IMG/VR virus record: IMGVR_UViG_3300032893_000763
Coordinates: 1 to 64,000 of that record
Source of the DNA: a virus
DNA length: 64,000 nucleotides
Strand: one strand, 5' to 3'
Below the pieces are notes generated by a model, which did not search any database, had not been told where the DNA came from, and worked only from the letters and a program-made list of their open reading frames with translations. A program made the position numbers and the translations under genes. Below are positions 13,632 to 56,415 of this stretch, one piece after another; position 1 is the stretch's first letter, and every line of letters begins with the position of its first letter.

Positions 13632-13684
13632 TCCCCCTTCCGGGGGATGTCGTGCGCCGGGCTCGGGCCGATACTGAGCACATG
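13632..13684 (+). promoter_or_regulatory. Tripartite leaderless promoter, copy 1
   Basis: TCCCCC-TTCC-GGGGGA, 19 nt, GCCGATACT, ATG at 13682. Confidence 0.8.
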
Positions 13685-13877
13685 ACTACTGGAACCTGGA
13701 GAGTCGCCCGAGTGTCCAACAAGACGGGTCGCACGCTCAAGGTCATCGACGGCGGCTTCCGCGAGCGGTGGATGGCCGAGGCGCTGGCAGCGGGCTTCGG
13801 CCCGGACAAGTCCACCCGCACGCGGATCGAAGTGCAGGCCGTCGGCTTCGTCAAGGCCGAGGCCGAGCGCCGCCGGA

Positions 13878-13930
13878 TCACCCGCTCGGGGGATGCAGGC
13901 TAGCTCGCCTGCGCCGATACTGAGCACATG
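13878..13930 (+). promoter_or_regulatory. Tripartite leaderless promoter, copy 2
   Basis: TCACCC-GCTC-GGGGGA, 19 nt, GCCGATACT, ATG at 13928. Confidence 0.8.
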
Positions 13931-15609
13931 GCTTACACGCACATCATCCGAGGTCAGAAGATCCGGCAGGCCAGTCAACGGCGCTACATCGTCGTCGCGT
14001 GCAGGCCCGTCGCGGTCGAGGCTCGGCGTTGGGATCATCGCGCGGTCACCGTTGTGACCAGGGACGACGGCACCACGTACGAGCAGACCGGTGCGTACGT
14101 CCCCGAGACGTTGCAGCCGATCCCGGCGTACGTCGTCGGGCGCAGCGACAACGCCGAGACGGCGCGGAAGCGTGCAGCCCGGACGCGCATCACGGCCGGT
14201 TGGGTCGTGGTGTGGGACACCGTGACCGAGAGCGAGGTCTGAGCATGAAGTCCACAAAGTCCACACCGGCCACCACCCCCGTGCAGACTTGGCACTGCCT
14301 CGGGCGCGGTGAGCACTTCAACGCGGATCGTACCCTCTACGTCTCGCGCACGCGGGACGGGTGGGAGTACGGCGTCATCCTCGACGGCGTGCGCTACCGC
14401 GAGGGCGAGACGACGAGGCCCATCGGCCGCGCGAAGGTTCTGGCCGAAGCTGCCGACTGTCAGATGGTTCCGTGAGCGGCAAGTACGTCACCCCCGAGGT
14501 CGGCAGCACGTTCACCCTCGCGGGATGGACGTGGACGGTGACCGAGGTCGTGCGCGGTGGCCGGTCGTACTTCGCCTCGACGCCGCTGCCCGACGGGCGC
14601 GAGATGGTGCGCAAGTTCTCGGCGTGGGTCGGAGACGTGTACTACGGCGAGCCCGATCCCGAGGAGGACGAATCGTGAACGGCACGGGCACCTACTACCG
14701 GCTGCGCATCTTCCCGGACGGGCGCATCGACCGTCCCGGCATCTACACACCGCGCGAGACGCGGGTAGTCGAGCGGACGAGCATGACCATCACCTTCAAG
14801 ATCCCCGGCCACACCTACTGGCGCGGCATCGGCCAGGCTCGCGGCTATGCGCCGGTCGAGTACGTCGTCTGTCGGATCATCGAGCACAGCGAGACGAGCC
14901 CGCGTGTTGAGGTCACAGGGCGCTATAGCGCGAACGAGTGGAGGGCTCGCGCATGAAGCGTAAGCCTCCCGAGCAGCCCTTCGGCTCCAAGGGGCCGACG
15001 TTCCACGACCTGCGCCCTGGCGACCGCGTGCGTGTCGTCGGCACCGAGCGCACGGGCGTCGTCGTCTCGCGGTGCAAGCCTCGGCGCGACGGCTGGATCG
15101 TTCGATGGGACGAGCCGCTGTTCGGCGTCGAGCAGGGCCGCGTGGCTTGGGCTAACCTGGAGCCCGTATGAAGCGGACGTACTTCCTCTCCTGCTTGGTG
15201 TGGGTCGATGGGCGCAACGTCCCTCGCTGCCACAGCTTCCACGCGGCCACGGACGCCGAGGCGCGGGTGCAGGCGCATCGCTTCCTCGCGTCGATACCCA
15301 AGCGCCCCTCGGCGGACGGGCTCAAGCCGGACACCGGCACGACCTCGCACGAGCGGATGACCTGCGTCTCCGAGCGGAAAGTTGGTCTGTGGGCGTGAGC
15401 AAGACCGCAGCCGAAGCCTTCGGGCCGGAGATCGCAGACGAGCTAGCGCGGTGGGCCATTGATGCGCTGTGCATGGTGCCGGTCAGCATCACCACAGCCA
15501 CGACCCGCCTCTCAGCACGACACGTGCGCGAGGGCCGCGAGATCCTCGACCGCGCTGGCGTCGATTGGCCCGCGCTCACCAAGGCGCACTTCGCATCTCG
15601 GCGGGCGTC

Positions 15610-16008
15610 ATGAGGCAGTGGTGGGAGCAGCCCGACCGGACGCGAATCTGCGGTCAGATCGCGCTCGCGGTCATCACCGGCTTGAGCGTCGAGCAGGCGA
15701 TTCGCCAGGTCGGCCACGAGCACGGCACTACCACACGGGTGCTCGCGCGGCACCTGCGAGCGTTCGGCTACGAGTGCGGCGACCGCTGCCGACGACGGGC
15801 TCGCAGTGAGATGCCCGACCTCGCGCTCGCACAGTTGCACTCGCCCAACTGGCGCGGTTGGCACTGGATCGTCGTAGACGACGGCGTGGTCTTCGATGGG
15901 CGCGAACGTCGGCGGCGGGCCGTCGGCCTGCGGGCGTACGAGTTCGATGCGTGGCGCTTCGACGGTGCGCGGATCACGAGCTACCTGGCGATCACTCCGC
16001 CCGCATGA
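15610..16008 (+). CDS. Peptidase C39-like (papain-fold) protein
   Basis: Q...CGQIALA...HWIVV...VFD provides a Cys/His/Asp triad. Confidence 0.55.
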   Translation: MRQWWEQPDRTRICGQIALAVITGLSVEQAIRQVGHEHGTTTRVLARHLRAFGYECGDRCRRRARSEMPDLALAQLHSPNWRGWHWIVVDDGVVFDGRERRRRAVGLRAYEFDAWRFDGARITSYLAITPPA

Positions 16009-16343
16009 GCGGCTGCGTCGGCCTGTGCTGCGTCGGCTTCGTGCTCTCGCCCACGCCGGAGAAGTTGGCCGCTGAGCCGGAGCGATTCGGGCCGGACGGG
16101 GCGTACATCCTGGACATGCTCATCGAGGTCGAGTCTCACGACGAGAACCGCCGCTTCAACTGCCGACACTTCGACTTCGCCACCTTCAAGTGCACGGCGT
16201 ACGAGTCGAGGCCGAAGATGTGCCGTGACCATCCGAGCTACGACCGAGGCTCGCGCTGCGATCACCACTGCGGCCTCCGCTACCGCAAGCCGCTTACGGT
16301 GCGATCGAGGATCGCGCCCGCTCTCTGGCGGGTCAACTGCTAG
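16005..16343 (+). CDS. YkgJ/CxxCxxCC-like cysteine-cluster protein
   Basis: CVGLCC...CRHFD...CTAYESRPKMCR. Confidence 0.7.
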   Translation: MSGCVGLCCVGFVLSPTPEKLAAEPERFGPDGAYILDMLIEVESHDENRRFNCRHFDFATFKCTAYESRPKMCRDHPSYDRGSRCDHHCGLRYRKPLTVRSRIAPALWRVNC

Positions 16344-16351
16344 GCTGCGCG

Positions 16352-16499
16352 GCAGGGAACACGAGCACGGGTGCCCGCTGCCAAGCGGGGGAGAGCGAGG
16401 AGTGTGGCAGACTCCCGGCCCGAGCGAGTGGCGACGTAGTACGCCGCGACCAGGCCGGTGAGAATCCGGGGTCGAGAGGGGCGGCTCGTCTGCCCCTGC
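16352..16499 (+). ncRNA. Candidate structured ncRNA with kissing loops and a T-loop
   Basis: Follows TGC-TAGGCT. Outer stems GCAGGG/CCCTGC and ACGAGC/GCTCGT, complementary loops TGCCA/TGGCA, CCGG-TGAGAAT-CCGG hairpin. Confidence 0.5.
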
Positions 16500-16511
16500 T
16501 ACACTGCGTCG

Positions 16512-16603
16512 GCGTACCGGGTAAACCGCAAGCCCCCGTTAGGCGCTCAAGCCGGTGCGGATGGGTGAAGGCCGGTTGGCAGGTAGCGGCTACCCCCGAG
16601 CAC
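16512..16603 (+). ncRNA. Candidate small ncRNA
   Basis: Follows TGC-TACACT (16500-16505). GGGTA..CCGC/GCGG.TACCC closing stem. Ends at a strong hairpin. Confidence 0.4.
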
Positions 16604-16633
16604 GAGAGCCCCGGTGTGGTCATCGGGGCTCTC
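16604..16633 (+). terminator. GC hairpin terminator-like
   Basis: GAGAGCCCCG...CGGGGCTCTC. Confidence 0.55.
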
Positions 16634-17503
16634 CACTTGCAGAGTCGGCGCAGCGTGTGTATGGTGCGCTCGACCACACAAACTTGGAGGTACGCATGAG
16701 CGACTTGAAATACACCGGCACCTACGCTCCCGGAGATCGCGTCGTCTGCACGTCGGACGACCTCGACGGCAGCTACGAGGGCGAGGAGGGCACGGTCATC
16801 AAGGTCTACCGGCAGGCGGGCGGCATCTTCGCGCCGGAGCGCAACGTCGAGATCGTCGTGTGGGACTGCGACGATTCGGACGACCACGCATCGACCGAGG
16901 CCGGGCGTGAGCTTCTCGCCAAGGCGTACGAGGCGGGCGATGTCTACGCCTCCTCGTCCGACGAGTTCTCCTTCGATGCGCTCTAGGGCGTACTGGAAGT
17001 TCGTCGCGGGCTTCGGCGCTTCGGCGTTCGTCGCGCTCATGCTCTACCTCGCGTTCCTCGCGGTGGTCGCGTACGTGGCGATCCACTTCATCAGGAAGGA
17101 GTGGTAGCCGTGAGCGAGCGCCTCGACTTCAAGGCCGAGCGGACGGCACACGCCTACGAGGCCAAGGCGAACGAGATGATGGAGTGCGCCGAGGCCGGAA
17201 CGGCAGAGGCCGGATGGACGCCCATCTACATCGCGGCGGCACAGGTCTACGCCACGCTCGCGCTCGGGCAGCGTGTGCGCGAGAAGAACGTCAAGTCGTG
17301 GTTGGGCCGCGAATGAACATCGACCGGCTCACCGTTCTGTGGAACACCGCTGCGCTCGCACGGATCACGCACGACATCCGCGTCAAGGAACTCCGCGATG
17401 CCGAGCCTCGGCTCGCACAGGCGAAGGCCGAGTGCATCGACTCGATGCGGGCCATCGAGGAGGAGAACAAGCGGATCGTCTTGGAGAAGCACGAGGCGTA
17501 CCG

Positions 17504-17550
17504 GCGGGAGTTCGCATGAAGCGGGAGTTCGCATGAAGCGCGAGGTCGCA
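17504..17550 (+). repeat. 17-bp tandem duplication creating minigene MKREFA* (17516-17536)
   Basis: GCGGGAGTTCGCATGAA twice, plus a degenerate third copy. Confidence 0.8.
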
Positions 17551-20543
17551 CTCTCCGTGCTCGCGGCCGTCGGTGCCTGCGTCGGCTTCTACAAGCTCAC
17601 GGCGTGGTTGGTGGATCGGTGAGCCTGCCTCGCTATGAGGTCGAAGTGCAACTGCGCGGTGAGGGCTACTCTCGCCGCACCATCGTCGTCCACGCTCGCA
17701 GCGAGTCCGAGGCGAGGCGCAAGGCGCTGCTCGTCTATCAGTCGCGCCTCACGTCCCGCATCTTGTCCGAGGAGAAGGCAGCGTGAGCCGGACACGTCTG
17801 GAGTTGATCGAGGCGAACATGGTGCCTCACTGCCCGTGCTGCGGTGCGGAGCCGGGCTCACCGTTCACGGGCAAGCGCACCGTGCTGTACGACACCGTGA
17901 AGCACGCTCTCACCTGTCCCGTCTTGCGGTTCGAGTCGGCACACGCTCTCTGGAAGGAGGCCGATCCGGCATGAAGCTCAACGACTACGCCAAGCTCATG
18001 CAGATTCGCGGCTCGGAGATCGCGCACATCGACTCGCATCCTTCGCACGAGGCGCGGTTCAAGGCCGTCATCCAGGCGATCATCGACGCCGGTATCCACC
18101 CCGGCCCGCTCGCCATCGGCTACGCCCTGCCGAACAAGATCGGCAACGTGCGCAACCTCAATGGGCGCGAGTCCAAGTGGCGGCGCGAAGTGCTGGAGGC
18201 CAACGGCTTCGTGCAAGGTGAGTCCACAGGCGGACACGCCGGGTACTGGAGGAAGGTCGCATGAAGCACGGCTCCCGCGAGTACATCCTCGACTCGGCGC
18301 TCGTGGCCGTCTCGAACGGCCTGCATCTCGACCTCGACCGCGTGAAGGCTCGGCGCGAGAAGCTCGCCAAGAAGGTGCAGCGTCTTCTTGAGCAGGAGCT
18401 TGCCATCGAGCGCAGCATCGCGGCGATCCACACCGTGCGCGGCGAGATCGTGCGCGGCAAGATCCTGCCCATCAAGCAGTGCGTCTCCGAGCGGTGCGAG
18501 TGCGACCCGCACGTCTGGACGGTGGATCGGGTGCACTTCTTCTGCGAGGGCCGCGAGGGCCGCACCGATCCGTTCGGCGGCGACTACGAGTCCACGCGAT
18601 GACGACGCTCGGGTGGATCATCACGTGCGCCCTCATCGGGTTGGTCGTGGCCGGGCTCGTGGAGGGCTTCCGCTACCGCGACGAGGTTCTCGTGCTCGCG
18701 TCCGTCGTGCTCGGGGTGATCGTGACCATCCTCGTGACGCACGCATGAACGCCTACGGCGAGTTCCCGGTCAGCGTGAAAATCTCACGCTGCGCCAACGG
18801 CGAGACGCGGGAGGCCACGCTGCGCATCGGGGACGACGTGTACGGCGCGGCGTCGATCTTCCGCACACCCGAGGAGGGCGAGAGCGAGGCGGGCTTCCGG
18901 GCTCGCTGCTTCCGCGACCTCATCAAGGCCCTTGACGGGCCGAAGCGTGCCGACTAGGCTGCGGCCATGAAGAACATCCTCTCAGACATCTTCGTGGTCG
19001 TGTTCCTCATCGCCATCGCGGCGCTCGGGATCGCGTGCACGTACTTCGGCGGCATCTTCGGCTTCGTCGCGTTCGTCCTTCTGCTCGCGGCGGTCAGCGG
19101 CAGGTGACGCACCAACAGCTTCTCGACGGGTACACCGAGGCCCGCCTCGCGGTCATCTACGAACGAAGCGGCGACTTTAGCCGCGACACGTGGCTGCTCT
19201 CGGACAAAGTGCGGGCGTATGCGCTCGCCAACGGACTGAGCGTGCCGATTGCGCTCATCGAGGCCGAGGCCGACAACCCGCGCGAGGTCGAGGAGTGAGG
19301 CTGAGAAAGCGGGACTGGCTCGGGGCCGGAATCGTGGCTGCCCTCTCCGTCTTCATCGACGTGACCGTCTGGACGGTATCGTGGCCGTTCGGGCTTCTGC
19401 TTGGAGCCCTTCTGCTCAGCGTGGGCGTAGGCTTCGTGCGAGTCGAGCTTCCCGAGCGGCGGCAGAAGGAGGTCAAGCAGCATCATGCACGGGTGGCCGA
19501 GCTTGAGGAGTGGCACCGGCAGTTCGACCTCCACTACGAGTTCCTGGAGGAGAACTACCCCGAGGCCGTGGCGTACGCCGATGCGCACACCGGCCGTGCG
19601 CACAGGGCCGGTCGCCACAGGGCCGGTAGGGCCAGTCGGCCCGGTCGCCCTATCGAAGCGCCGCTCGCGCGGAACCACTCGCCCGTCCTTGAGTTGCACC
19701 ATCTCCGGCGCGGGATCGCCTCGGCTGTGAATGACCCGTACCTGCGCTGGATGTCGAGCCTCATCGCGCCGGAGCCGTTGACGGATGCCGAGTTCCGCGA
19801 GGCGCAGAAGGCGCTTGAGGCGGCGATCATCGACGGCTTCGCTACGCCCCCTCTCGTGCTCGGCAAGGGAGCGACCGTGGAGTTCATCGAGCCGCGTGGC
19901 GTCGTCAAGGCGTCGTACCTGGACGACGGCTTCCCGCCTGTGCCGAAGCTGCCCGAGCCGACGCTCCTTCCTGAGTGGCTCGCATGACGACCGTCGTGCA
20001 CGTTCGCATCCTGGACGGCTTCCAGGAGGGCCGCATCGGAGTGGTCGTGCCGAAGGAGGAACTCCCCGAGGCGATCCGCGAGAAGTGGGAGGTCGCGGTG
20101 GCGGTCGAGCACTACGCTATCCCCGGCATCCAGGTCGGCGTCTACGGCTACAACGGCGACGAGCTTGAGCTTATGCGGGCGGAGCAGGTGTGAGCGCACT
20201 GCGCGATTGGGCGTGCGAGTGCACGTCGAGGCGCTGCCGGGAGCGGATCTACCTGACGACCCGCGAGTACGGTAGGCTCTCGGCGCTCGGGCGAGTGGTG
20301 ACGCCGGAGCACAAGGACGGCGAGGTCGTTGCCCGCGTGCGCACGGCGGTCGTGGTACGCTGAGGCCGTGTCCGACCATCCTCTCGCGGGCGGGCCTCTG
20401 CGGCCCGATCAGGTTCGCTGCCCCGACGTGATCCCTCCGTGGATGACGCTCGCGGCCGACAACACCTTCCGCCTCTGCGGCATGTGCGGCGAGCGCATCC
20501 AGGACTGCGACTGCGCCGACGACTCCTAGCCGGAGCATGAGGA

Positions 20544-20622
20544 AGGGAGAGACTCGACCTCCGGGGTGTGGCGGGTGAGCCACAGAAACTTGCTCTTGCT
20601 CCCGGTGGGAATCTCTCCCTAT
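20544..20622 (-). ncRNA. Candidate ~80-nt rod-like small RNA driven by tripartite promoter copy 3
   Basis: The +1 position reads ATA rather than ATG. 5' AGGGAGAGAUUC pairs with 3' GAGUCUCUCCCU over 12 bp. Confidence 0.55.
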
Positions 20623-20673
20623 GCCCCAAGTATCGGCGGCTAGCCCGGACGGGGCAATCCCCCGTTCGAGTGG
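20622..20673 (-). promoter_or_regulatory. Tripartite promoter, copy 3
   Basis: CCACTC-GAAC-GGGGGA, 20 nt, GCCGATACT. Confidence 0.7.
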
Positions 20674-20694
20674 TTGCGCGATAGACTCGGAGAC

Positions 20695-23445: not shown

Positions 23446-23448
23446 ATC

Positions 23449-29610: not shown

Positions 29611-29772
29611 CTAGAAGATGTGGACGTTGGTGGTGATCCAGGTGACGGCGGCGACGACATCCGCGACGTGGCCGTGGCCGAAGCCCGGCGTCGGCGTGGT
29701 GATCGTCTCCAAGACTGCCTCGGCGCACGCGGTGAGGGCGGCTGCGAGGGAGAGGAGGAGTGCCTTGGTCAT
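29611..29772 (-). CDS. 53-aa secreted or lipoprotein-like peptide
   Basis: MTKALLLSLAAALTAC contains a lipobox-like LTAC. First gene of a tripartite-promoter cassette. Confidence 0.5.
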   Translation of the reverse strand: MTKALLLSLAAALTACAEAVLETITTPTPGFGHGHVADVVAAVTWITTNVHIF

Positions 29773-29822
29773 GTCCTAAGTATCGGCCTCCCAGGGTAAG
29801 AGGGCATCCCTCGGAAGGGTGA
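29770..29822 (-). promoter_or_regulatory. Tripartite leaderless promoter, copy 4
   Basis: TCACCC-TTCC-GAGGGA, 19 nt, GCCGATACT, ATG at 29772. Confidence 0.8.
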
Positions 29823-29876
29823 AATGCTACTCTTGATGGGTCACAACTTGGACTGAGGAAGGGAGGGACAAACTAC

Positions 29877-30092: not shown

Positions 30093-30520
30093 GCCCGCCC
30101 CCCCGCGCACGCACGGCTAGGCGATACGACCGTGTGGGAGTCAACAGGCCGATCTCCCCGGCCACCGAGAAGGGCTCCCCGGCGGGAGCCCTTCGCTATT
30201 CGGGCTCGTGGACGGCGGCAGCGAAGGCGAAGAAGTCGTCCATGATGCCCTCGATGGTGGGGTCGAGGAACTGCGCGAGCAGCTTCCCGTCCCGCGACCG
30301 GCGCACCTGCGAGGAGACGATCCTGCCTCCGACAAGCTCCTGCGCGAGGACGACGGCACCACGGTAGCTCGGGAGGCCCGTCACCGTCTTGCACGTCATG
30401 TCGTCGCGGAGGAACCGCACTGTGTAGTTGTCTGTCATGCCAGGGAGTCTCTCCGCGAGCGCCTCCTTCTTACGCCGGTTGCAGTCGGGGCAGTTGATCG
30501 GAAGGCGGATGTCCACAATA

Positions 30521-30573
30521 TCACCCTATCGGGTGATGCACTCTTGGCGCAGACGGCCGATACTTGGGACATG
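30521..30573 (+). promoter_or_regulatory. Tripartite leaderless promoter, copy 5
   Basis: Perfect TCACCC-TATC-GGGTGA, 19 nt, GCCGATACT, ATG at 30571. Confidence 0.85.
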
Positions 30574-36496: not shown

Positions 36497-36876
36497 TCAT
36501 CGGTAGTTGGAGAGCGTCTCGCGCTCCCACGCTGCGACCTCCAGGCATCCGCCGGGGTCGTCGTGGATCGCGCAGCGGCGGCAGTAGCCGCACGGCTTCG
36601 GGGGGTGGCGCTTGACGAAGCCGACGCTCATGCACTGGAAGGTGTCCGAGCCGATCACGAGCAGGTCACCGACGCTCATGCTCGGGAGCCGGTAGCCGAT
36701 GGCCTCAAGCCGGTCGGCGTCGGCCTCGGTCACGCGGTTGAAGAACCGGAAGGCGTCCTCGGGGCTCATCGCCGGGAGGGAGCCGCTCCACTCGGTCGCC
36801 CGCGTGGGGCGGCCTCCTGGATGCGCGAGGCAATCGCGGAGACGACAGTGATGTGGGTGTTCTGTGAAGTGGTCAT
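36497..36876 (-). pseudogene. YodL-like hypothetical gene with apparent frameshift near 36815
   Basis: Promoter-defined MTTSQNTHITVVSAIASRIQE continues in the -1 frame as GRPTRATEW...SMSVGDLLVI. Confidence 0.5.
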
Positions 36877-36928
36877 GTTCACAGTATCGGCCATATTCAC
36901 AGGTGTTGTGAATCACCCGAAAGAGTGA
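36874..36928 (-). promoter_or_regulatory. Tripartite leaderless promoter, copy 6
   Basis: TCACTC-TTTC-GGGTGA, 21 nt, GCCGATACT, ATG at 36876. Confidence 0.75.
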
Positions 36929-36931
36929 AGA

Positions 36932-37009
36932 TGCGGCGGCGCGGAGCGGGCCTCGAACCCGCAACCTCCGATGCCTCGGGCTCTACCTCTTGAGCTACCC
37001 GCCCGCCGC
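36932..37009 (-). ncRNA. tRNA-like RNA lacking an anticodon loop
   Basis: TA-GCTC-AAGAGGTA-GAGC D arm, GCGGG-TTCGAGG-CCCGC T arm, CCGA-GGCA-TCGG mini-arm, 12-bp bulged acceptor stem. Confidence 0.7.
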
Positions 37010-37059
37010 GTGCCGGTTGCACCCCGGCGGCGTCAGCCGGGAAGGAACCGGAAACCCTA

Positions 37060-37385
37060 TGGAGCCGGTGGGAATCGAACCCACGTCCGAACAGGTGGTG
37101 CGCTGGAAGTTGATAGCAGCTTCTTGGGGGCATGTGCCCTCCACCAGGGCAGCCGTCTCTCCGGCTCCGTAGTCCGCTCGTCTCTCCGAGCCGTCCTTCG
37201 CGTGGTGCCCTACGCGAACGAGGGAGCGAAGGCCGGGGACGCAGGCACGAGGCCCTTGATCCACGACTTCGCCGCGACGATCAGCTTGGTGATCGCACTT
37301 GACGTTGCCCTCCGGGCCGGTGCGGTAGGCCGCAACCCGCTGCCTTCTCACGTCCGTTCCTATCCGTCGAAGCCAGGTCGGCCCC
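37060..37385 (-). ncRNA. ssrA: tmRNA
   Basis: 5' GGGGCCGACCTGGCTTCGAC, 3' GGACGTGGGTTCGATTCCCACCGGCTCCA, G3:U70 pair, tag ORF 37210-37296, own TACACT promoter. CCA not encoded. Confidence 0.92.
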
Positions 37386-37409
37386 GCGAGAGAGTGTAGC
37401 ACCCTCACG

Positions 37410-38185
37410 GGAGCCCCCGGCTCGATCTCAAGCGCATCTCCCTCTGTGCTGTGGTAGGTGCGGGCGTCGTGTGCGGCAGACTTGAAGCGAGTGGACTAGA
37501 GAGTCCGATGCTCCGTCGTCTCTACCACTCTACGGTTTTAGTCGAGGGCTCGCCGTACGCCCCCTTCCTCCCGCGTTACTCCGCCACACCGTCTAGGCGA
37601 TGCGCCATTCCGCGCCTACCATCGAGGTCTAAAGCGATGCACCAAGCGGGAGCGCAGCACCACGGCTCGCGTGCGCCGCGACTAGTGACACGTCGAAGGG
37701 AACTCTGCAAGCCCTGAGTGGCTCGCTTCCAATCGGTGTGCGACCTCGTACGTCCGTGCTGGCCGGGCTCCCGCTTGATTCCTACGAGACTTCCTCAAGT
37801 GTCCGCCACGCCGTCCTCTCTCGCCTACCCTACCCGTTCGTGCGCACTCCCGGTTACTCTCGGCTTGAGACTCTGACGCTTTACTGTTTCACTCGCCCGT
37901 ACGCCTCATCCTCGTACACCCTTCGTTCAGGGGTCGCCCTCGGTCTTCGCTGCTAGCCGGGGTCGTGGTCGTTAGCCGTCAGGGGTGTAGTCAACGGTGT
38001 GCTGGACGGTACCTCGCAGTGGCGGGCACTGGAGGAAGTCTCGTGAGTCTTCATCCGCGCGACCGTAGTCTGCTCCTTCGCGGTGGAGACAAGTGATAGA
38101 GGGGAGTTCCGCCTTCCGGCCAGTTTCCCGTATCCGCTTGCAAGCACATCATCGGGCCGAAGCCCCAAGCCTGCAATCCCTCGTA
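37410..38185 (-). ncRNA. Candidate giant structured ncRNA (~780 nt)
   Basis: TTGACG-N18-TAGGAT promoter (38192-38221), no credible ORF, long-range stems (37784-37809 with 38019-38044; ~37641-37653 with ~37767-37779). 3' end approximate. Confidence 0.7.
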
Positions 38186-38217
38186 CGAGTGATCCTACTG
38201 GATTCGGGAAGGTTCCG

Positions 38218-40414: not shown

Positions 40415-40504
40415 ATCCGTACCTCCTTCATCGGTTAGCGTGAGATTTTCACGCTCCGCACTTACAAGTTTAGAAGACTCGGGTAGGTCTTGTCCAGAGG
40501 GTTC

Positions 40505-42383
40505 CTAGACGAGAGCCTCCCGGTACTTCTCTGAGTACAGCGTGGGGTGCTCGATGGCATCGAGCGCCTTCTCGCGCGGGACATCGAACTCGTCCAGCAC
40601 GACCTTGCCGTCACCTGCGATGACCGCGAGGCGAACGGTAGCAGTCGAGGACGCCACGATGTCGATGTGGAAACCGACACCGCGCGGGCTCACGAAGATT
40701 CTGTCTTCGGCGTTCAACTCCTTCCTCATGCACTCCTCCTCCTCTCGGCTGCGAGGCGAGCCTCGTAGCGGGCCACCATGTCACGGTAGTCGTCCTCGCA
40801 GATGGTGCCGATGTGGCGAGTGAGGAGATCCTTGGCCTGCTCCAGCGAGCAGGTGAGAAGCGCGATCCGGTTGCGGGTGCGATCCGTCATGACTGCCACC
40901 GCCGCGATGATCGTGCTCGGGCGCATCGGGTGGATGCGGCCATCGTGAAGCTCGACATCCCACAGCGTGCCGACGGCGCGGGGGCCGATGACGGTGCAGG
41001 TGCCGTAGGAGTTCTGGAACGTCATGCCGGGATACACGCGGCTCGCGTTCGGGTCTTGGACATAATGTGAAGTGGTCATGGCCTCATCATCGTCTACGCC
41101 GAGGAGAACGTCCACCCCTCGTTCGAGTGAACTGGCGCAGACGCAGGGGCTCCGCTACACTCCTGCGCATGAGACTCGTCCGCTACTTCCAGAACCGCCG
41201 GGCCGTGAAGCGGCAGCTTCGGCTCCTCGCCCGGACGCTCGAAGTCGCCCTCGCGCGGCCCTCCGATCCGAGGGGCTCGTGATGGCCGTCTTCTCCGTGA
41301 AGGATCTCAAGGTCGTCAGCATCTTCCAGGTCGGCCAGAAGAAGGGCGGCAAGAAGAAGTGAGCATCTCCGTCTCCGAGCGCAGCGAGCCGAAGCCGCCG
41401 TCGAGCGTGCGTGACGGTGCCGAGGCGCGGAAGAAGCGGCAGCGCGAGGCAGCCGACGTGCTGCGCGAGCGCAAGGACAACCCGGTCGAGCGCCGCGTGC
41501 GTGTGGCGCAGTCGCGCATCACCTTCTCCAAGGTGAGCCCGGCGACACTGCGCGAGTGCACCGAGTGCGGGCGTGAGAACTGGCGGTGGCTCACCGAGTG
41601 CCCCGGCTGCGGCACGCCCGTAGATGTCTGACGACACGCAGGTGTGGGACGGCGTTCCCCGTCTCTACCTCTCGCGGGATCAACTGTTCTGGCTCTACTC
41701 GTTCGTCCCGCAGTGGCGCGGTCGTGCAGTCGGCCCGCTCGTCCCGTTCGCACACGGAGAGCGTGTGCACTTCTCCGTCGAGGCGATCTTCCGGCCGACC
41801 AAGGAGGAGGCCGAGGAGGCGATGTGGTACCACGTCGAGAACGCTTGCAAGCACGAAGGCATGGCGTACGATCAGGAGCAGTGGACGCTCTATGATCTCC
41901 GTCTTGTCGGAGGGTGCTAGACTTGTACTGTTCCCCCGGCGGAGCGGAGCGCGACAACGGCAGATGCCATACGGCCCGCCCGCCGGGGGACTCTACGGAG
42001 GAGGAGGAGACTTGATCGAGGAGCCGAGCATCGTTCTGCACGACACGGCCAAGCTGCTCATGCGTGGCCGCTGCGTCGAGGCCGACGCCCGCGACTCGCA
42101 GGGCCGTCCCGTCTTCCCGACCGAGAAGTCCGCAGTCGCATGGAGCGTGACCGGGGCGCTGCTCAAGGCGGCACGCGAGGCGACCGGCCGCTGCTTCCTC
42201 GACGCCCTGCGCGGGCTCGCGCTCGCGGTCGGAGCCGAGGTCGCATCTCCGCGTGACTGGCCGGAGTCCGAGACGCCCGTGATCGCGCGGCGTCTGTGCG
42301 AGCAGGTGTGGGAGTTCGAGGACGGCGCGAGTAACGCAGCGGTCTTCGAGATGATCGAGCGTGCGCTCGAACACGTGAACTGA
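40505..42383. other. Small hypothetical genes (40505-40729 -, 40726-41079 -, Zn-ribbon 41359-41631 +, 41624-41920 +, ~42012-42383 +)
   Basis: Codon bias and coupling. Confidence 0.55.
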
Positions 42384-42386
42384 GAA

Positions 42387-42439
42387 TCACCCTTCCGGGG
42401 GATGGCCCCCTCTGCGCCAAGGCCGATACTTGGGGCATG
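42387..42439 (+). promoter_or_regulatory. Tripartite leaderless promoter, copy 7
   Basis: TCACCC-TTCC-GGGGGA, 19 nt, GCCGATACT, ATG at 42437. Confidence 0.85.
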
Positions 42440-43395: not shown

Positions 43396-43396
43396 A

Positions 43397-43448
43397 TCCC
43401 CCGGAAGGGGGATGCCCCGAGACGAGCCTGGCCGATACTTAGGACATG
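43397..43448 (+). promoter_or_regulatory. Tripartite leaderless promoter, copy 8
   Basis: TCCCCC-GGAA-GGGGGA, 18 nt, GCCGATACT, ATG at 43446. Confidence 0.8.
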
Positions 43449-46805: not shown

Positions 46806-46852
46806 TAGGGCGGAACAGAGAGTCACGAGAGAGAAAGGCAAGGCGAAGCAAC

Positions 46853-47866: not shown

Positions 47867-47883
47867 GAACGGAGGAGACGGCG

Positions 47884-48129
47884 ATGGCACACAACGTGAC
47901 ACGCACGTATCAGGTGGCGGCGCAGCCGTGGGTGGTCTGGACGACGAACAATGACCTCCACGCCTTCCTCGCTTCCCTGAACGGTGCCGGAGCCTCCGAT
48001 CTCGGTTCGGTCGAGGAGACGCTCGCGCTTTGGGCAGTGCAGGTACCGGATTCGACGGAGACGGATGCAGGCACCGCCTACATCGTCTCGTCGGAGACGT
48101 ACAAGCGTGTCCAGGCGGGTCGCTACTAG
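47884..48129 (+). CDS. Small probable virion protein
   Basis: GGAGGAG RBS, lies between capsid gene and terminator. Confidence 0.6.
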   Translation: MAHNVTRTYQVAAQPWVVWTTNNDLHAFLASLNGAGASDLGSVEETLALWAVQVPDSTETDAGTAYIVSSETYKRVQAGRY

Positions 48130-48157
48130 GCCACCCGGTCACCACGTGCAACGTCTG

Positions 48158-48183
48158 GAGAGGCCCCCGCAAGGGGGCCTCTC
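48158..48183 (+). terminator. Terminator after the capsid operon
   Basis: GAGAGGCCCCC-GCAA-GGGGGCCTCTC. Confidence 0.75.
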
Positions 48184-48207
48184 TCGTTCTTGTGCTATCT
48201 TCCTCGA

Positions 48208-48282
48208 AGCGGGATGGAGCAGCCCGGAGTGCTCGCCGGTTTCATACGCCGGAGGTCGTGGGTTCAAGTCCCACTCCCGCCA
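48208..48282 (+). tRNA. tRNA-Met(CAT), initiator-like
   Basis: Cloverleaf with 1:72 A-C mismatch, GAGC/GCTC D stem, CCGGT-TTCATAC-GCCGG anticodon arm, TTCAAGT T loop. Confidence 0.85.
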
Positions 48283-48402
48283 TCAAGGACAATGGATGAC
48301 CAGGCTCACACGCAGACAGATGAAGTGCCCGGAGTGTCAGAAGCCGGTGCTAGTGCTGGCCCCGGCGGAGACGCCGCTGCCGGAGCTTCTCTTGTCCGCG
48401 AC

Positions 48403-50707: not shown

Positions 50708-51294
50708 AGGCCCTCGTCCTCGTAGCGCACCCGGACGACGAGACGATCTTCGCCGGGGGAGCGATGCTCTCTAGTCCCGAGATGGAGTGGTCGATCCAGT
50801 GCGTGACGTACTCGGCCGAGAGCGAGCGCGGTAGAGAGTTCTACGCTGCGGTGGATGGCTTCCGCAAGGCGGGCGTCAACATCGGCTTGACGGAGATGCT
50901 CCGGCAGCGCGATCCCGAGGGCGGCGTCATCCCGGCGAGTGTCTACCTCCAGTGGGAGAAGGCCATCCGCGCACACCGCGTGGACGCCGACATCGTGTTC
51001 ACGCACAACCGCCTCGGGGACTACGGCCACCCGCACCACATGGCGGTCAACTCCATCGCGCGGTCGATCTACGGGGGCCGCGTCCCGATGTGCGAGTTCT
51101 TCTACCCCGGCCTCACCGGGGTGGGGTTCCAGCACGGTGGGCACTCGCGGCTGCGTTGTCAGGACACCCGGAAGCTGGACATCTTCAAGGCCGCGTACGG
51201 GCACCGCCTGGACGGGCTCATGTACCATCTCCCTGAGATGATGAACTTCCTGCTCATCGAGTGCGACGAGAGGCACGCTTGCGTATCCTCGTAG
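50704..51294 (+). CDS. PIG-L/LmbE-family GlcNAc deacetylase
   Basis: VAHPDDET...THN..GDYGHPHH. Confidence 0.85.
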   Translation: MKALVLVAHPDDETIFAGGAMLSSPEMEWSIQCVTYSAESERGREFYAAVDGFRKAGVNIGLTEMLRQRDPEGGVIPASVYLQWEKAIRAHRVDADIVFTHNRLGDYGHPHHMAVNSIARSIYGGRVPMCEFFYPGLTGVGFQHGGHSRLRCQDTRKLDIFKAAYGHRLDGLMYHLPEMMNFLLIECDERHACVSS

Positions 51295-52292
51295 ACCGAC
51301 ACCACGCCGACCTCCTCTACTCGCTCCAACGGCTGTTCGAGGATCGGCTCAGGATGAATCTCTACATCCCCATCGGGCACGAGTGGTGGGCCGAGGGCTA
51401 CTGGCAGTTCGGCAGGGTGTTCGGAGACAACCGGCTCGCACAACAGTACCTCGCCCTCCGCGAGGGAGAGTTCCAGGACGCGGGCTCGCATTACGTCACC
51501 TTCGACTCGTCGCACCCGGACAAGCGCATCCGCGCCGTGACCCGCGAGCAGTTCCGCGCGATGGAGTGGGACTTCGTGATGCCGTCCGTGCAGGAGAACC
51601 AGCGCGGCTACCATCGGCTCGCGCAGGAGGTCGGCGCACGCTACCTCTACCAAGTCGGGAACACGGGGCAACACATCGACTGGACGCTCGACCCCCTCGT
51701 GCTCAACACGAGCGAGGCCAAGATCCCCGAGGGCAAGGGTGTGACGATCCATCAGGAGATCGACTCGACGGTGGGGGCGTTCCGCTACCGGCCCGCGATC
51801 CTCGGCAACCCGCGCATCGTCCGCTCGTTCGTCAACGCCTTCGACCGGCTCCCCGGCTACACCGGATTCCTCCAGACGGAGCAGGCGCTCCCGGACTGGC
51901 GCTTCACGGTGCACGGGCACTTCGGCAGGGACGGCAACATCAACCCCGTCGCAGCGATGGGTGAGATGATGTCGAGCGCCGGATGGGGGTGGCACGACAA
52001 GCCGGTGGGTGATGGCTTCGGGCACGTCATCCACTCGTGGGCAGCCGTCGGCCGTCCGCTCATCGGGAGGGCGTGCTTCTACAAGGGCAAGCTGGCCGAG
52101 CCCTTCTGGACGCCCGAGACGAGCATCGACACGACGGGCCGCTCCTTGTCTGATGTCGTCCGGCTCATGGACGAGATCGCCTGCGACACCGGCAGGCACG
52201 CCGCGATGTGCGCCGCGATTCGCGCGACGTTCGACCGGCTCGTGGACTACCCGGCCGAGGCCGAGGCCGTCCGCACTCTCCTCGGAATCTAA
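51279..52292 (+). CDS. Glycosyltransferase-like protein
   Basis: HDKPVGDGFGHVIHSWAAVGRPLI resembles the GT-B EGFG motif. Confidence 0.6.
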   Translation: MRILVDRHHADLLYSLQRLFEDRLRMNLYIPIGHEWWAEGYWQFGRVFGDNRLAQQYLALREGEFQDAGSHYVTFDSSHPDKRIRAVTREQFRAMEWDFVMPSVQENQRGYHRLAQEVGARYLYQVGNTGQHIDWTLDPLVLNTSEAKIPEGKGVTIHQEIDSTVGAFRYRPAILGNPRIVRSFVNAFDRLPGYTGFLQTEQALPDWRFTVHGHFGRDGNINPVAAMGEMMSSAGWGWHDKPVGDGFGHVIHSWAAVGRPLIGRACFYKGKLAEPFWTPETSIDTTGRSLSDVVRLMDEIACDTGRHAAMCAAIRATFDRLVDYPAEAEAVRTLLGI

Positions 52293-52324
52293 CGATTCAC
52301 GCTCCTTTCGTTAGAAAGTAAAGC

Positions 52325-52378
52325 TCACCCTTTCGGGGGATTCCGTTAGCTTGTGCTCGGGTCGATACTTGGGACATG
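52325..52378 (+). promoter_or_regulatory. Tripartite leaderless promoter, copy 9
   Basis: TCACCC-TTTC-GGGGGA, 20 nt, GTCGATACT, ATG at 52376. Confidence 0.75.
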
Positions 52379-53517
52379 ACCAAGACACAAGCCACATACA
52401 CCGACGGCATGGGCTTCACCGATGACGAGTGGGAGCGCATGTGGAACTCCGAGACGGCGACCTCGACCGTGCACCGCGCGAGCGACGACGACGAGGACGC
52501 TTGGCAGGAAGCGTACGACCGGCACTTCGCCGCGAATGGCGACGAGGACGCGGCCATCGACTACGCCGACGCGAAGGTCTACGGCTAGTCATGATCGAGG
52601 TCATCCTCTTTCAGAACGACCGCCAGGTGGCGAGCGCGGAAGCGGACACGGCGGAAGACGCCGTGTTCGCCGCTCGCACAATCTGGCGCGAGCACGAGCA
52701 GGCCAACCGCTACCAAGGCGTGACCCGCGCGATGCGTGCGGTCTTCTACGTGGACGGCACTCTCGTCCGCATGGTCGAAGGGAGACTCCCCTAATGCCCG
52801 TCCCCGGCTTCCCCTACCCCTACCTCATCGACTGCGGCGAGGACGACGAGCCCGAGTACGACTTCAACGCGGCCGACCTCTACGATGACTTCGAGCCGCT
52901 GGAGGACTACGATGCCGAGTAGCTTCCCGACGATCATCGTCCCCGGCCGCAAGCTCACGAGCGCCGAGTGCTTGGCGAAGGCCGAGGAGACGAAGGCGGA
53001 CATCGAACGCTGCTACGCGGGCGAGACACGCGACCATCTCGTCAAGGAGTACATCGGATGGCTCCGCCTTGCGAAGGAGCGAGCGTGAAGCCCCGGCCCG
53101 AGATCGGCTCCGAGAACTGGCTCCGCGAGCAACTCGCCAAGGGGCTCGGCCCCGACGAGCGCGACCGGCCGAATCCCCCTTCCGGGGGAGGCGGTCGAGG
53201 CGCGGGTGGCCGATACTAGGTACATGAGCAACTCACACACCCCCACCTTCCGCGTCGAGTTCTCCGGCGTCATCGTCCTCACCGGCACCGAGGCCAAGCG
53301 TGTCTCGTACACCCCGGCCGCGTGGGACTGCAAGCAGTCCGGCAAGCCTTCCGACGAGACGCTCGCCACGTACGTCCGTGGCGTCGAGGACTCCACCCTC
53401 CCCGGTGGCGTCAACGAGCATCTCGGCGTGACCCGCATCTCCCGCGCCAAGGTCGTCCGGCAGTCCACGGACGAGGTTGTCGCCACCTACGGCGCTCCCA
53501 CCTTCCAGGTCATCTAA
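52376..53517 (+). other. Two cassettes of small hypothetical genes (including 52376-52588, 52591-52794, 53224-53517)
   Basis: Promoter-defined starts, closed by hairpin 53551-53572. Confidence 0.65.
53174..53226 (+). promoter_or_regulatory. Tripartite leaderless promoter, copy 10
   Basis: TCCCCC-TTCC-GGGGGA, 19 nt, GCCGATACT, ATG at 53224. Confidence 0.8.
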
Positions 53518-53599
53518 CCCTCCTCCTCCTCCTCCTCAGATGACCGCTCCGAGGCCCGCTCCGGCGGGCCTCTCCGCGTCCGGGTGCTAGAATCAGGGC

Positions 53600-53830
53600 A
53601 TGGCACTCGTCACGAAGGTCGTGTCGCTGGACGACACCGGCAAGGGAGACATCACCGTCGCCCCGATGTTCTACGTCGGCTCCAAGGGCGCAGCGGGCGT
53701 CACCAACGACGGCGATGCGCTCGGCACGGCGCTCCTGACCCCGAGCACCGCTCGCTTCGTGGTCGGAGACATCCACGTCTACGGCGGTGCCGCAGACGGG
53801 GAGTGCTCCCTGTACTTCATCCAGGACTAG
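53600..53830 (+). CDS. Small probable virion protein
   Basis: Leaderless TAGAAT-N6-ATG start. Confidence 0.6.
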   Translation: MALVTKVVSLDDTGKGDITVAPMFYVGSKGAAGVTNDGDALGTALLTPSTARFVVGDIHVYGGAADGECSLYFIQD

Positions 53831-53833
53831 CCC

Positions 53834-54397
53834 TTGCCTTGGTTGGTCGTCCTCGGGACGGGCTCGTGGTGTGACCCTGCCGTCTCCCGGCAGACGTTCC
53901 GCGCCTCCTACTGCAAGAAGAAGGGCACCGGCTACAAGGTCGAGGAGGACATCGCGGAGGCGGCTCGGGCCACCGGCTATTGGTGGCTCCAGGTCTACCC
54001 CGACGAGATGGAGCCCGAGCTTGACGTGAGCGATCCCTCCGGCCCGCTCACGCTCGAAGACGTGAAGACCGGGCTCGCCCCCGGCGTCCGGCTCCAGGTG
54101 ATCGAGGGAGGCGGAGAGCCCGAGGAGGAGTACCAAGACCCCGAGGCCCCGCCGCTGGAGCACGCCTGCCAGTGGTGCCCGCGCCGCTTCCCCTCGTCCG
54201 GCGCTCTCGGGCGGCACGTCGAGTTCGAGCACACCCTCGCGCACGAGGCCGACATCGCCGCGAGCATCGAGCACCACCGCAAGCGCATGGCGGAGAAGAC
54301 CGCGCTCCGGCGGCTGGAGGACTACGACGAGCCTCTGCCTCCGTGGGAGCGCGAGGCCGTCGAGCAGGGGCCGACGATCCCGCCGGAGGTAGAATAG
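53834..54397 (+). CDS. Hypothetical protein with C2H2 zinc-finger-like motif
   Basis: CQWCPRRFPSSGALGRHVEFEH. Confidence 0.6.
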   Translation: MPWLVVLGTGSWCDPAVSRQTFRASYCKKKGTGYKVEEDIAEAARATGYWWLQVYPDEMEPELDVSDPSGPLTLEDVKTGLAPGVRLQVIEGGGEPEEEYQDPEAPPLEHACQWCPRRFPSSGALGRHVEFEHTLAHEADIAASIEHHRKRMAEKTALRRLEDYDEPLPPWEREAVEQGPTIPPEVE

Positions 54398-54401
54398 GGT
54401 C

Positions 54402-55058
54402 ATGCCTCAGAAGCTCGCCTCTCTGGAGGATGTCAACCGCATCCTCGGCTACAACACCGGGGACGACACCGGCCGGGACGCGAAGATCCGCGCCGAGCTT
54501 GCGGCCGTTGAGTCGTGGGCCGACACGGCCCTCTGGAACATCAGCGCCGAGGGGCCGAACGTCGAGTCGTACTTCGACGTGTACGAGGACGGCACTCTCT
54601 ACCTGCCTGCGGGCGACCTCACCGTCACCAAGGTGAAGATCATCCCGTACGCCGCAGGTGATGACTCGTTCTACTACATCTACGTCAACTCGGAGGCCGG
54701 GAGCCTCGGGGGCTACGACCTCGATGACCAGGGCCGTCTCTATCTCCGGCCGATGCGCACCGTCACCCCGTTCGAGGGCGCTCGGGCCGACCGGCTCATG
54801 AAGGTCTACGCTCGCGTGGACGTGCACTACATCGGCACGGGCGTCGTGCCTCGTGCCGTCACCGAGGGCATCGCCTTCCTCGCAGCGGGCTACCACGCCT
54901 ACGGGCCGAAGGCGCTGGAGGCCATCAAGTCCGAGAAGATCGGGGACTACAGCTACACGCTCGCGGGCGTGTCCGGCGACGAGGAGCTTCCGTACATCCG
55001 CCAGGCGTACTTCTTCCTGAACAGGTACATGCGGACGATGCGTGTTCGGATGTGCTAA
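54402..55058 (+). CDS. Head-to-tail adaptor
   Basis: LASLEDV...VPRAV...IKSEKIGDYSY. Confidence 0.75.
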   Translation: MPQKLASLEDVNRILGYNTGDDTGRDAKIRAELAAVESWADTALWNISAEGPNVESYFDVYEDGTLYLPAGDLTVTKVKIIPYAAGDDSFYYIYVNSEAGSLGGYDLDDQGRLYLRPMRTVTPFEGARADRLMKVYARVDVHYIGTGVVPRAVTEGIAFLAAGYHAYGPKALEAIKSEKIGDYSYTLAGVSGDEELPYIRQAYFFLNRYMRTMRVRMC

Positions 55059-55478
55059 GTGAGCTTCTCGCGGCTCCTCATTCACAAGCTGGAGGTCTAC
55101 CGGCGGGAGAAGGACGGCGATGGCAACCCGCTCGTGGATCGGTTCGGGCAGGAGTTGTCGATCAACCCGCGCGATCATCAGGTGGACGGCGAGACGCTCG
55201 TCCACACCTACCCCTGCCGTGCGTACATGAAGTCCGGGGGCCTGCTCATGAATGAGCGGATGGTGGACACATTCGAGCGGTACTTCGTCGTCTACACCGA
55301 CGTGGACGTGGACATCCGCGAGGACGACGCCCTCCGGTGCATGGGCGTGGACGGCCACATCATCTTCGGGCTCCTCAAGATCAAGGACTCTGAGACGAAG
55401 TACGACTCACGCGGCCCGCACCACTGCGAGTTCACCGTGTGGGAGCAGGCCGGGCCGGGCCTGGCCGCAGGAGTCTAG
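55059..55478 (+). CDS. Head closure (stopper) protein
   Basis: Synteny; D.DIREDD...HHCE. Confidence 0.6.
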   Translation: MSFSRLLIHKLEVYRREKDGDGNPLVDRFGQELSINPRDHQVDGETLVHTYPCRAYMKSGGLLMNERMVDTFERYFVVYTDVDVDIREDDALRCMGVDGHIIFGLLKIKDSETKYDSRGPHHCEFTVWEQAGPGLAAGV

Positions 55479-55480
55479 GC

Positions 55481-55894
55481 GTGGCGATGGTAGCCCGCTC
55501 ATGGGAGGGCCTCGGGATCGCGCAGAAGATCGACCGCGCAGGAGGCCGTGCCATCGTCGGCATCGGGCTCGCGGCAGCGGTCGAGACGAAGCGGGTCACA
55601 CACCGGCTCACCGGCACGCTCATGCGCTCGGTGCACGTGGCCCCGATTGGGGAGTACCACGACAGCGACGAGGACGAGGCTCACACCGCCGACCTCATGC
55701 TCACCGCCGAGAACCTCCACGCCACGCAGACGCCTATCGGCCAGGTGGTCGAGGTCGGCTCGTGGATCTCCTACGCCTGCGTCGAGTGGGTCGGCCGGAT
55801 GCACCCCGGCGTGACGCAGGGCATCGAGATGGTGCGTGGCGGGCGCTCGGATGCTATCGTGGCTCAAGCGTTCCGCGAGGAAGGACTCCTGTAG
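55481..55894 (+). CDS. Neck protein (HK97 gp10-like)
   Basis: TGTLMRSV...VGS.ISYA.VE. Confidence 0.6.
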   Translation: MAMVARSWEGLGIAQKIDRAGGRAIVGIGLAAAVETKRVTHRLTGTLMRSVHVAPIGEYHDSDEDEAHTADLMLTAENLHATQTPIGQVVEVGSWISYACVEWVGRMHPGVTQGIEMVRGGRSDAIVAQAFREEGLL

Positions 55895-56374
55895 ATGCCG
55901 TCCGGCTTGCCCCCCATCTCACCCGCCGAGCTTACCCGCGACCTCATCACGCGGTACGGCGAGGTCATCGTCAACGAGGGCTACACCGTCAAGGTCGGCC
56001 CGGCGAACGACACCGAGCAACAGGCGGGCGTCATCTCGCTCATGTCGGCGGGCCTGCCGATGATCGAGAAGTACGCCCCGCTCCAGTGGTACCGGGCGCA
56101 GGCGCGGTGTCTCGCGGGCGACCTCGCCACCGCCGACCTGCTCGCGCAGGCAGTGCAACGCGACGTGCACGGGCGCGGACGCAGCCTGTGCTTCCAGACG
56201 GCGAACCCGGCGTACCCGGACGACACCGGCCAGTGGTTCCTCATCCACATGGCGAACATCACCGTCGGCCCGTCGATGCACTACGACTCGCCCGAGACGT
56301 GGGAGACGCTCATGTTCGCGGAGTTGATGATCGGGAACGTGCCGGTGGCGACCGGCCCCGAATACCCCTTCTAG
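55895..56374 (+). CDS. Tail terminator
   Basis: Synteny and size. Confidence 0.55.
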   Translation: MPSGLPPISPAELTRDLITRYGEVIVNEGYTVKVGPANDTEQQAGVISLMSAGLPMIEKYAPLQWYRAQARCLAGDLATADLLAQAVQRDVHGRGRSLCFQTANPAYPDDTGQWFLIHMANITVGPSMHYDSPETWETLMFAELMIGNVPVATGPEYPF

Positions 56375-56415
56375 GGGATGCGCCCGGCGTATCGAGTACC
56401 GATACTCGATACATG
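56363..56415 (+). promoter_or_regulatory. Tripartite leaderless promoter, copy 11 (degenerate)
   Basis: TACCCC-TTCT-AGGGGA, 19 nt, ACCGATACT, ATG at 56413. Confidence 0.65.

Follow-up and report, generated by a model that had tools for sequence, protein, structure and literature searches.

The stretch of DNA analysed here, termed the window, is the first 64 kb (64,000 nucleotides; nt) of IMGVR_UViG_3300032893_000763, an IMG/VR virus entry of 93,768 bp with 67% G+C that derives from an uncultured ~94-kb phage of actinobacteria. Window and record coordinates are the same for positions 1–64,000, and the copy at 75671 is cited by its record position, which is beyond the window. Dispersed over the record are copies of a repeated element, which we call the class-B promoter: an 18-bp palindrome (A-TCMCCC-N4-GGGKGA-T), 19–22 nt, CGATACT, six further nt, and ATG. 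A search of Pfam and PHROGs showed that the genes behind the copies are nearly all ORFans of 36–118 codons, with two larger ones of 285 and 301 codons. The other leaderless starts of this phage, TAGRVT or TACAVT followed by N6 and a start codon, were treated as a separate and larger class. The coordinates of all these features are collected in Table 1.

A sequence-only reading of the window had listed 11 copies of a 16-bp palindrome, TCMCCC-N4-GGGKGA, each joined at a narrow range of distances to a -10-like element. An exact-pattern search and an alignment anchored on GCCGATACT, which aligns all 11 copies, recovered each of them at its position and with its spacing; for the minus-strand copies, the begin coordinates in that reading are the low plus-strand ends of the 16-mers and are correct. 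There are seven exact matches to TCMCCC-N4-GGGKGA against 0.04 expected, and the 16-mers at 29807–29822, 36913–36928, 56363–56378, and 20658–20673 carry one or two mismatches. Flanking A and T residues extend the 16-mer to 18 bp. The anchor itself is exact in 9 of the 11 copies, the variants being GTCGATACT at 52361 and ACCGATACT at 56398, and it lies 19 nt from the 16-mer in seven copies and 18, 20, 20, and 21 nt in the others. In all ten copies that end in ATG, the A is 15 nt after the first base of the anchor. The remaining copy, at 20637(-), has ATA in place of ATG and is the start of a folded RNA, as the same reading had noticed. Over the whole 93.8-kb record, CGATACT occurs 12 times, every time as part of the composite; the spacer between palindrome and CGATACT is 20 nt in 8 of the 12 copies (range 19–22), and N6 and ATG follow in all but the copy at 20637(-). 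The pattern of right arm, 19–23 nt, CGATACT, N6, and ATG was found nine times in the record and not once in 200 Markov simulations. The total is thus 12 copies with CGATACT plus a degenerate 13th at 41077–41131(-). No description of this motif in actinophages was found in the literature.

The phage uses leaderless genes widely. In the gene map, which is based on the G+C content of third codon positions (GC3), all 11 matches to TAGRVT-N6-ATG/GTG coincide with predicted gene starts, and four more leaderless genes are preceded by TACACT or TACAGT (TACAVT-N6-start). These genes appear to represent a second, larger class of leaderless promoters with a Streptomyces-like -10. The hexamer GATACT stands in exactly the same register as in these 15 genes, with A at -11 and T at -7 in all 12 copies and the start codon 6 nt after the hexamer, as in actinobacterial sigma-A-type leaderless promoters. 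The earlier view of the copies as a single class of leaderless promoters is supported. The T at -12 of the sigma-A-type TANNNT is absent, the base being G in 12 of 12 copies and G or C in the host orthologues described below; G instead of T at this position would be consistent with a weak, activator-dependent -10.

If the A of the ATG is +1, the centre of the palindrome lies at -42.5 in eight of the 12 copies, at -41.5 in one, at -43.5 in two, and at -44.5 in one, positions that would match the classic geometry of class II activation. In class II activator promoters such as the lux box of LuxR, a palindrome bound by a dimer with a LuxR/GerE-type helix-turn-helix (HTH) covers the -35 region and is centred at -41.5 or -42.5, and there is no recognizable -35 hexamer. 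The class-B promoter has the same placement but is leaderless and has an invariant GATACT preceded by C.

The same composite is found in bacteria. When one genome from each prokaryote species was scanned for the box with CGATACT, over 120 loci were hit, most of them in Actinomycetes. In ~35 Streptomyces and Kitasatospora genomes, one conserved site stands 6–7 nt ahead of the start codon (ATG) of a gene for a 413-aa HisKA_3 kinase, and the next gene encodes a Response_reg+GerE regulator. The composite is also carried by DUF7134 kinase/regulator operons in metagenome-assembled genomes (MAGs) and by a LuxR-family gene in a Pseudarthrobacter MAG; Mycobacterium-like MAGs have it in an intergenic region flanked by a gene for a HAD hydrolase and a divergent one for a NarL-type regulator. 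In ~15 Gaiellales-like MAGs (L031–L033, L036, L038, L057, and others), a perfect TCACCC-N4-GGGTGA with CGATACT is located upstream of a gene for a protein with an MshEN domain, which binds cyclic di-GMP; regulators of the same type probably have a conserved host target here. Many pattern matches came from a repeated element of one Oscillospiraceae (Firmicutes) MAG (L029, L037, L068, L081, L089, L091, and others), which looks like an unrelated dispersed repeat and not a class-B promoter.

Among 401 sampled Actinomycetota genomes, five contained the composite, in one copy each. Orthologues of the Streptomyces kinase, fetched without reference to the motif, were obtained from 5 of 41 Streptomycetaceae genomes, and all five keep the box at the same distance, with CGATACT (twice), TCATACT, CCATACT, and ACATACT as the -10. 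The HisKA_3/NarL operons of Actinomycetes thus have a composite identical to that of the phage (box, ~20–23 nt, (C)GATACT, and a leaderless or near-leaderless start), with one copy per bacterial genome as against 12–13 in the phage. The position of the composite next to the regulator gene suggests that these operons are auto-regulated. The Streptomyces regulator has ordinary VraR/DevR/NarL relatives in a PDB search, and a homologue search gave generic names only. The link of the composite to HisKA_3 kinase and NarL-type regulator genes lends support to the idea of a NarL/BldM-like activator.

The likeness to the BldM box, which the sequence-only reading had pointed out, agrees with the published site: the BldM group I box of Streptomyces venezuelae is TCACcCgnncGgGTGA, a 16-bp palindrome bound by a NarL-family dimer (Al-Bassam et al. 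2014, PMC4125116). The phage palindrome matches this box, and at the conserved positions the match is exact for the copy at 30521 and for several of the boxes in the phage contig G003, but positions 3/14 are often C/G here and most copies in the present phage have TCCCCC/GGGGGA. BldM, an orphan regulator that controls a developmental regulon, has no described phage targets, fixed -42.5 position, or leaderless coupling, and the phage host is not known to be a Streptomyces; among the related regulators, BldM is just one of the candidates. The activator half of the reading draws its support from conservation and genomic association as well as from position and symmetry.

Pattern scans of IMG/VR revealed the composite in ~14 other viral contigs. 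One of them, IMGVR_UViG_3300050011_000047 (G456; 92,362 bp with terminal repeats), is a syntenic sister of the present phage, with 65–80% nucleotide identity over 42% of the genome. In six orthologous promoter pairs, the arms, -10, and spacing are conserved and the spacers have diverged, with the exception of the copy at 36889(-), whose spacer palindrome is also kept in G456. Of the genes that directly follow the 12 promoters, only two (B9 and B12) have a homologue in G456, to which the second gene B7b can be added. The promoter module therefore appears to be more stable than its cargo, and this, together with the lineage-specific nature of most first genes, supports the picture of small accessory cassettes that had been drawn from the window. 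Apart from G456, the phages carrying the composite appear to be unrelated uncultured actinophage contigs: G002 (55 kb) has 6–7 copies and shares three genes with the present phage, and G003 (147 kb, 95% complete) has at least 13 boxes and shares 13 genes. The -10 elements that accompany the palindrome in G003 include CGATAAT, CGATGAT, and further A..T hexamers. The sole promoter-plus-gene unit common to phages beyond the sister phage is the 301-codon ORFan, which has 38% identity to a G002 protein and 51% to a G456 protein and has kept its class-B promoter too.

Alternatively, the palindrome might form a hairpin in the RNA and close the upstream unit as a terminator or insulator, with the -10 alone as the promoter. 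It is G+C-rich with a 4-nt loop, the copies at 42387 and 43397 begin 1–4 nt past a stop codon, and the copy at 36913 follows a tRNA-like gene. However, there is no T-run after the palindromes, and a terminator scan of 13–32 kb did not call the class-B sites. Among 36 sites from four phage genomes, the arms vary independently (Fisher p = 0.48 for positions 3/14 and 0.57 for positions 5/12): the combinations at 3/14 are A/G in 10 sites, C/T in 5, C/G in 15, and A/T in 6, and 15 of the 36 sites are non-complementary there. The letters of the box, and not merely their pairing, are conserved across unrelated phages and bacteria. Because the arms vary independently and the sequence itself is conserved, the palindrome fits a binding site for a protein dimer rather than an RNA stem under selection. 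Furthermore, four copies face divergent genes, three lie within the 3' end of the upstream coding sequence, and the distance to the -10 is fixed. An intrinsic terminator was thus rejected on the missing T-run, the lack of covariation between the arms, and the silent terminator scan, and we regard the hairpin explanation as extremely improbable. Two other explanations accept a protein at the palindrome. A DNA-binding protein of the phage, either the HTH protein encoded at 921–1373 or an unrecognized ORFan, could activate or repress through the box, the bacterial look-alikes then being unrelated. Operator sites for a phage's own regulator are commonly scattered in phage genomes, and the HTH protein scores weakly as Sigma70_r4_2/GerE-like and has a conserved counterpart in G456. 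On the other hand, no homologue of this protein, the only HTH protein of the phage, was found in G001–G004, very few genes are common to the phages that carry the box, and box, spacing, and -10 recur beside NarL-type regulator genes in several bacterial lineages; a phage-encoded regulator is, in our estimation, unlikely. The main role of the copies could also be that of decoys, which would draw a host response regulator off its single chromosomal target and so blunt a stress or defence response of the host. The tiny host regulon, with its single site in each of the few genomes that have one, and the 12 copies per 94 kb of phage DNA, multiplied by replication, would suit such a role, but decoys would not need each box to stand at a fixed distance from a -10 and a start codon, and we hold this explanation to be highly improbable.

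The identity of the sigma factor raises two further alternatives. The sequence-only reading took the -10 for a FliA/SigD/WhiG box and proposed that both an activator and sigma-28 gate these promoters, which would then need a WhiG-type sigma together with a NarL-type activator. The WhiG consensus is T(A/C)AA-N16-GCCGATAA, with a conserved -35, T(A/C)AA or CTCA, 16–17 nt upstream of GCCGA (bioRxiv 10.64898/2026.01.14.699351). The class-B element GCCGATAC, present in 9 of 12 copies and with one mismatch at positions 1–2 in the other three, matches 7 of 8 positions of GCCGATAA; CGA, a hallmark of sigma-28 boxes, is found in all 12 copies, the distance to the start would fit, and WhiG homologues are widespread in Actinomycetota. 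In contrast, none of the 12 copies has T(A/C)AA or CTCA 15, 16, or 17 nt upstream of GCCGA, an absence that the same reading had already remarked on, and the site of the would-be -35 is taken by GATG/ATGC from the edge of the palindrome. In three of the five orthologous host promoters CGA is replaced by TCA, CCA, or ACA and ATACT is kept, which suggests that the sigma-28 core is dispensable. The final T, variable in sigma-28 targets, is invariant here at -7, and the sigma factor of G456, described below, is RpoS/RpoD-like and not FliA-like. FliA/WhiG proteins over the cut-off were absent from four of the five small composite-bearing MAGs, a weak argument since these MAGs are possibly incomplete. 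We rejected the sigma-28 reading on the missing -35 and the variable CGA, and consider its chance of being right very low; of the proposed gate, the NarL-type activator is retained on the strength of the linkage to regulator genes in bacteria. The retention of ATACT beside a varying CGA and the A..T hexamers of G003 lead us to read the -10 as a weak sigma-70-type hexamer rather than a sigma-28 box.

The other alternative is a sigma factor of the phage. As the sequence-only reading stated for the window, no sigma or NarL-family gene is evident: Sigma70_r2, receiver, and GerE domains were not found in the record as it stands. Both ends of the record, however, cut into genes although it is labelled 100% complete. 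In G456, a 282-aa sigma factor with regions 1.2, 2, 3, and 4, closest to RpoS/RpoD/SigB models and not to FliA, is encoded at 64587–65435 (-); this gene and a 183-codon open reading frame lie between the DUF932 and deoxynucleoside monophosphate (dNMP)-kinase genes, the very genes that are cut at the ends of the present record. The present phage probably also has an RpoS/SigB-like sigma gene, located in the gap at the record ends. The earlier alternative that the factors are either host-encoded or elsewhere in the phage genome may therefore be partly right in its second half. Such a sigma could read the class-B -10 as part of a phage-timed middle or late class in which the palindrome-binding protein is optional, and the invariant CGATACT would fit a dedicated sigma. 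However, the same -10 and box occur in G003, G002, and G001, in which Sigma70_r2 was not found, and before two-component operons in bacterial chromosomes. The bacterial occurrences imply that host polymerase must be able to use the class-B -10, and together with the phages in which no sigma was found they indicate that a phage sigma is not required. We assign only a rather small likelihood to this alternative.

The best explanation, to which we give about an even chance, is that the class-B elements are activator-dependent leaderless promoters with a host NarL/LuxR regulator on the palindrome and a weak sigma-70-type -10. The 18-bp palindrome, which overlaps the -35 region, would most likely be the binding site of a dimeric host response regulator from the NarL/LuxR family with BldM-like specificity. 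From about -42.5, this regulator would activate rather than repress, recruiting RNA polymerase to the weak, non-canonical -10 GATACT, in which A-11 and T-7 are kept and G replaces T at -12. Six bases downstream, the A of the ATG would be the first transcribed base, giving an mRNA without leader or ribosome-binding site, and the sigma used would be either of the host principal type or an RpoS/SigB-like one such as that encoded by the sister phage. A small RNA and about a dozen small genes, most of them lineage-specific, would thereby fall under a host two-component signal; in other words, a set of small accessory genes is probably turned on by a signalling protein of the host. It is in keeping with a host regulator that no GerE protein over the cut-off was found in the other phages that carry the composite. 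Several observations weigh against this explanation. The invariance of CGA speaks for sigma-28, and that of CGATACT as a whole, in 12 of 12 copies, is stricter than is usual for the -10 of a housekeeping sigma; a phage sigma may have a role at these promoters. Most right arms read GGGGGA and not the GGGTGA of BldM, the HTH protein encoded at 921–1373 could in principle bind the box, and G003 has a GerE-like frame below threshold (20.3 bits).

A wider and more tentative scenario, which we think rather doubtful, is that several unrelated soil actinophages each wired a dispersed set of early or accessory genes to one family of intramembrane-sensing, VraS/LiaS-like HisKA_3 kinase/NarL systems of the host by copying the auto-activated leaderless promoter of that system; the envelope perturbation of infection or another host state would be the trigger, and the many copies on replicating phage DNA could also drain the regulator from the one target it has in the host. 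A coupling to motility, pili, or development, as raised in the sequence-only reading, is speculation.

Other short conserved motifs are dispersed in many actinophage intergenic regions. The stoperators of mycobacteriophages are asymmetric 13-bp sites for a phage repressor, and the start-associated sequences include a ribosome-binding site; neither is known to have bacterial counterparts. Unlike the class-B promoter, they are not combinations of a palindrome and a -10 with a leaderless start. A closer parallel is provided by the CtrA boxes of alphaproteobacterial phages, in which several sites for a host response regulator lie in phage promoter regions and a tie to the state of the host has been proposed (Mascolo et al. 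2022, PMC9437464). CtrA differs in being OmpR-type, and its boxes belong to another host phylum, have another site architecture, and lack a fixed -10 or leaderless start. If a host response regulator does bind the class-B palindrome, the phage regulon would be plugged into an actinobacterial two-component signal in a comparable manner. Unlike in the CtrA case, the whole module of box, -10, and leaderless start appears to have been copied from the host system's own operon. The promoters would then provide a testable handle on the timing of accessory genes in uncultured actinophages, and the phage sites a ready-made collection of binding sites for an uncharacterized but widespread kinase/regulator pair of Streptomyces and its relatives. 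Compact, regulated leaderless promoters of this kind could also be of use in actinobacterial engineering.

Table 1. Class-B promoters and other features of the phage record (window coordinates unless marked as record positions)
Feature	Position	Strand	Remarks
Promoter 1	13631..13684	+	palindrome 13631-13648, CGATACT 13669-13675, ATG 13682
Promoter 2	13877..13930	+	CGATACT 13915-13921, ATG 13928
Copy 3, no start codon	20620..20674	-	CGATACT 20635-20629; right arm intact, left arm degenerate
Promoter 4	29770..29823	-	precedes 53-codon gene 29611-29772
Promoter 5	30520..30573	+	perfect TCACCC-N4-GGGTGA box
Promoter 6	36874..36929	-	22-nt spacer with second palindrome TTCACA-N5-TGTGAA (36890-36911)
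Promoter 7	42386..42439	+	palindrome begins 4 nt past the stop of the upstream gene; G456 orthologue at 9026
Promoter 8	43396..43448	+	precedes 285-codon gene (PHROG families of unknown function)
Promoter 9	52324..52378	+	GTCGATACT variant; G456 orthologue at 19807
Promoter 10	53173..53226	+	palindrome and -10 embedded in 3' end of 44-codon gene 53085-53219
Promoter 11	56362..56415	+	ACCGATACT variant; box with 2 mismatches; overlaps 3' end of gene 55895-56374
12th copy	record 75671	-	outside the window
13th copy, probable, degenerate	41077..41131	-	box with 3 mismatches, GATGAT -10, N6, ATG 41079
301-codon ORFan	record 74753-75658	-	G002 counterpart 40446-41321 (-)
TAGRVT/TACAVT leaderless starts (examples)	18955, 24808, 32659, 34076, 35875, 38793(-), 53588, 54390
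tRNA-like gene	36938-37004	-	28.4 bits; just upstream of promoter 6
tmRNA	37057-37385	-	Rfam RF00023 (46.7 bits, gathering score 47, E = 5e-17); ARAGORN calls it as well
DUF932 gene, left end	2-793		~117 codons missing
dNMP-kinase gene, right end	record 93227-93768		~20 codons missing

A megablast search with 24 kb against isolated phages gave no match, and no terminase relatives were found in viral contigs. The capsid tblastn matches listed had at most ~32% identity and came from many different hosts, and a BLAST search of the transfer-messenger RNA (tmRNA) against five actinobacterial genomes gave no match; for these reasons, no host is called.

Among the individual copies, promoter 1 heads a rightward block of small genes, the gene upstream being divergent, and the palindrome of promoter 2 sits within the 3' end of a 73-codon gene (13682–13903) of that region. 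At copy 3, the predicted +1 at 20622 opens a structured RNA of ~259 nt (20622 to 20364 on the minus strand), which folds at -128 kcal/mol (z = -3.0); an Rfam search with this RNA gave no match. The RNA at 20364–20622(-), which lies between two plus-strand genes, is a candidate for a small RNA of the phage. Behind promoter 4, also on the minus strand, the 53-codon gene starts with a lipoprotein-like signal (…LTAC); small membrane proteins of this kind often serve in the exclusion of other phages. Promoter 5 forms a divergent pair (30516–30573) with the leaderless gene 30196–30516(-), the TAGGGT -10 of which falls within the palindrome of promoter 5, and one protein bound there could thus switch the direction of transcription.

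Promoter 6 is located directly downstream of the tRNA-like gene and the tmRNA gene, beyond which ~800 nt (37400–38200) have no coding signal. The whole of promoter 6 is kept in G456, where the second palindrome is found at ~88040. In G002, GTACCCGGGTAC occurs in the spacer of five of the six class-B promoters (L144–L146). These second operators in the spacers suggest an extra layer of control by a repressor. The degenerate 13th copy is also kept in G456, at 7813(-), and the orthologue of promoter 11 in that phage (23234) has GATAAT as its -10.

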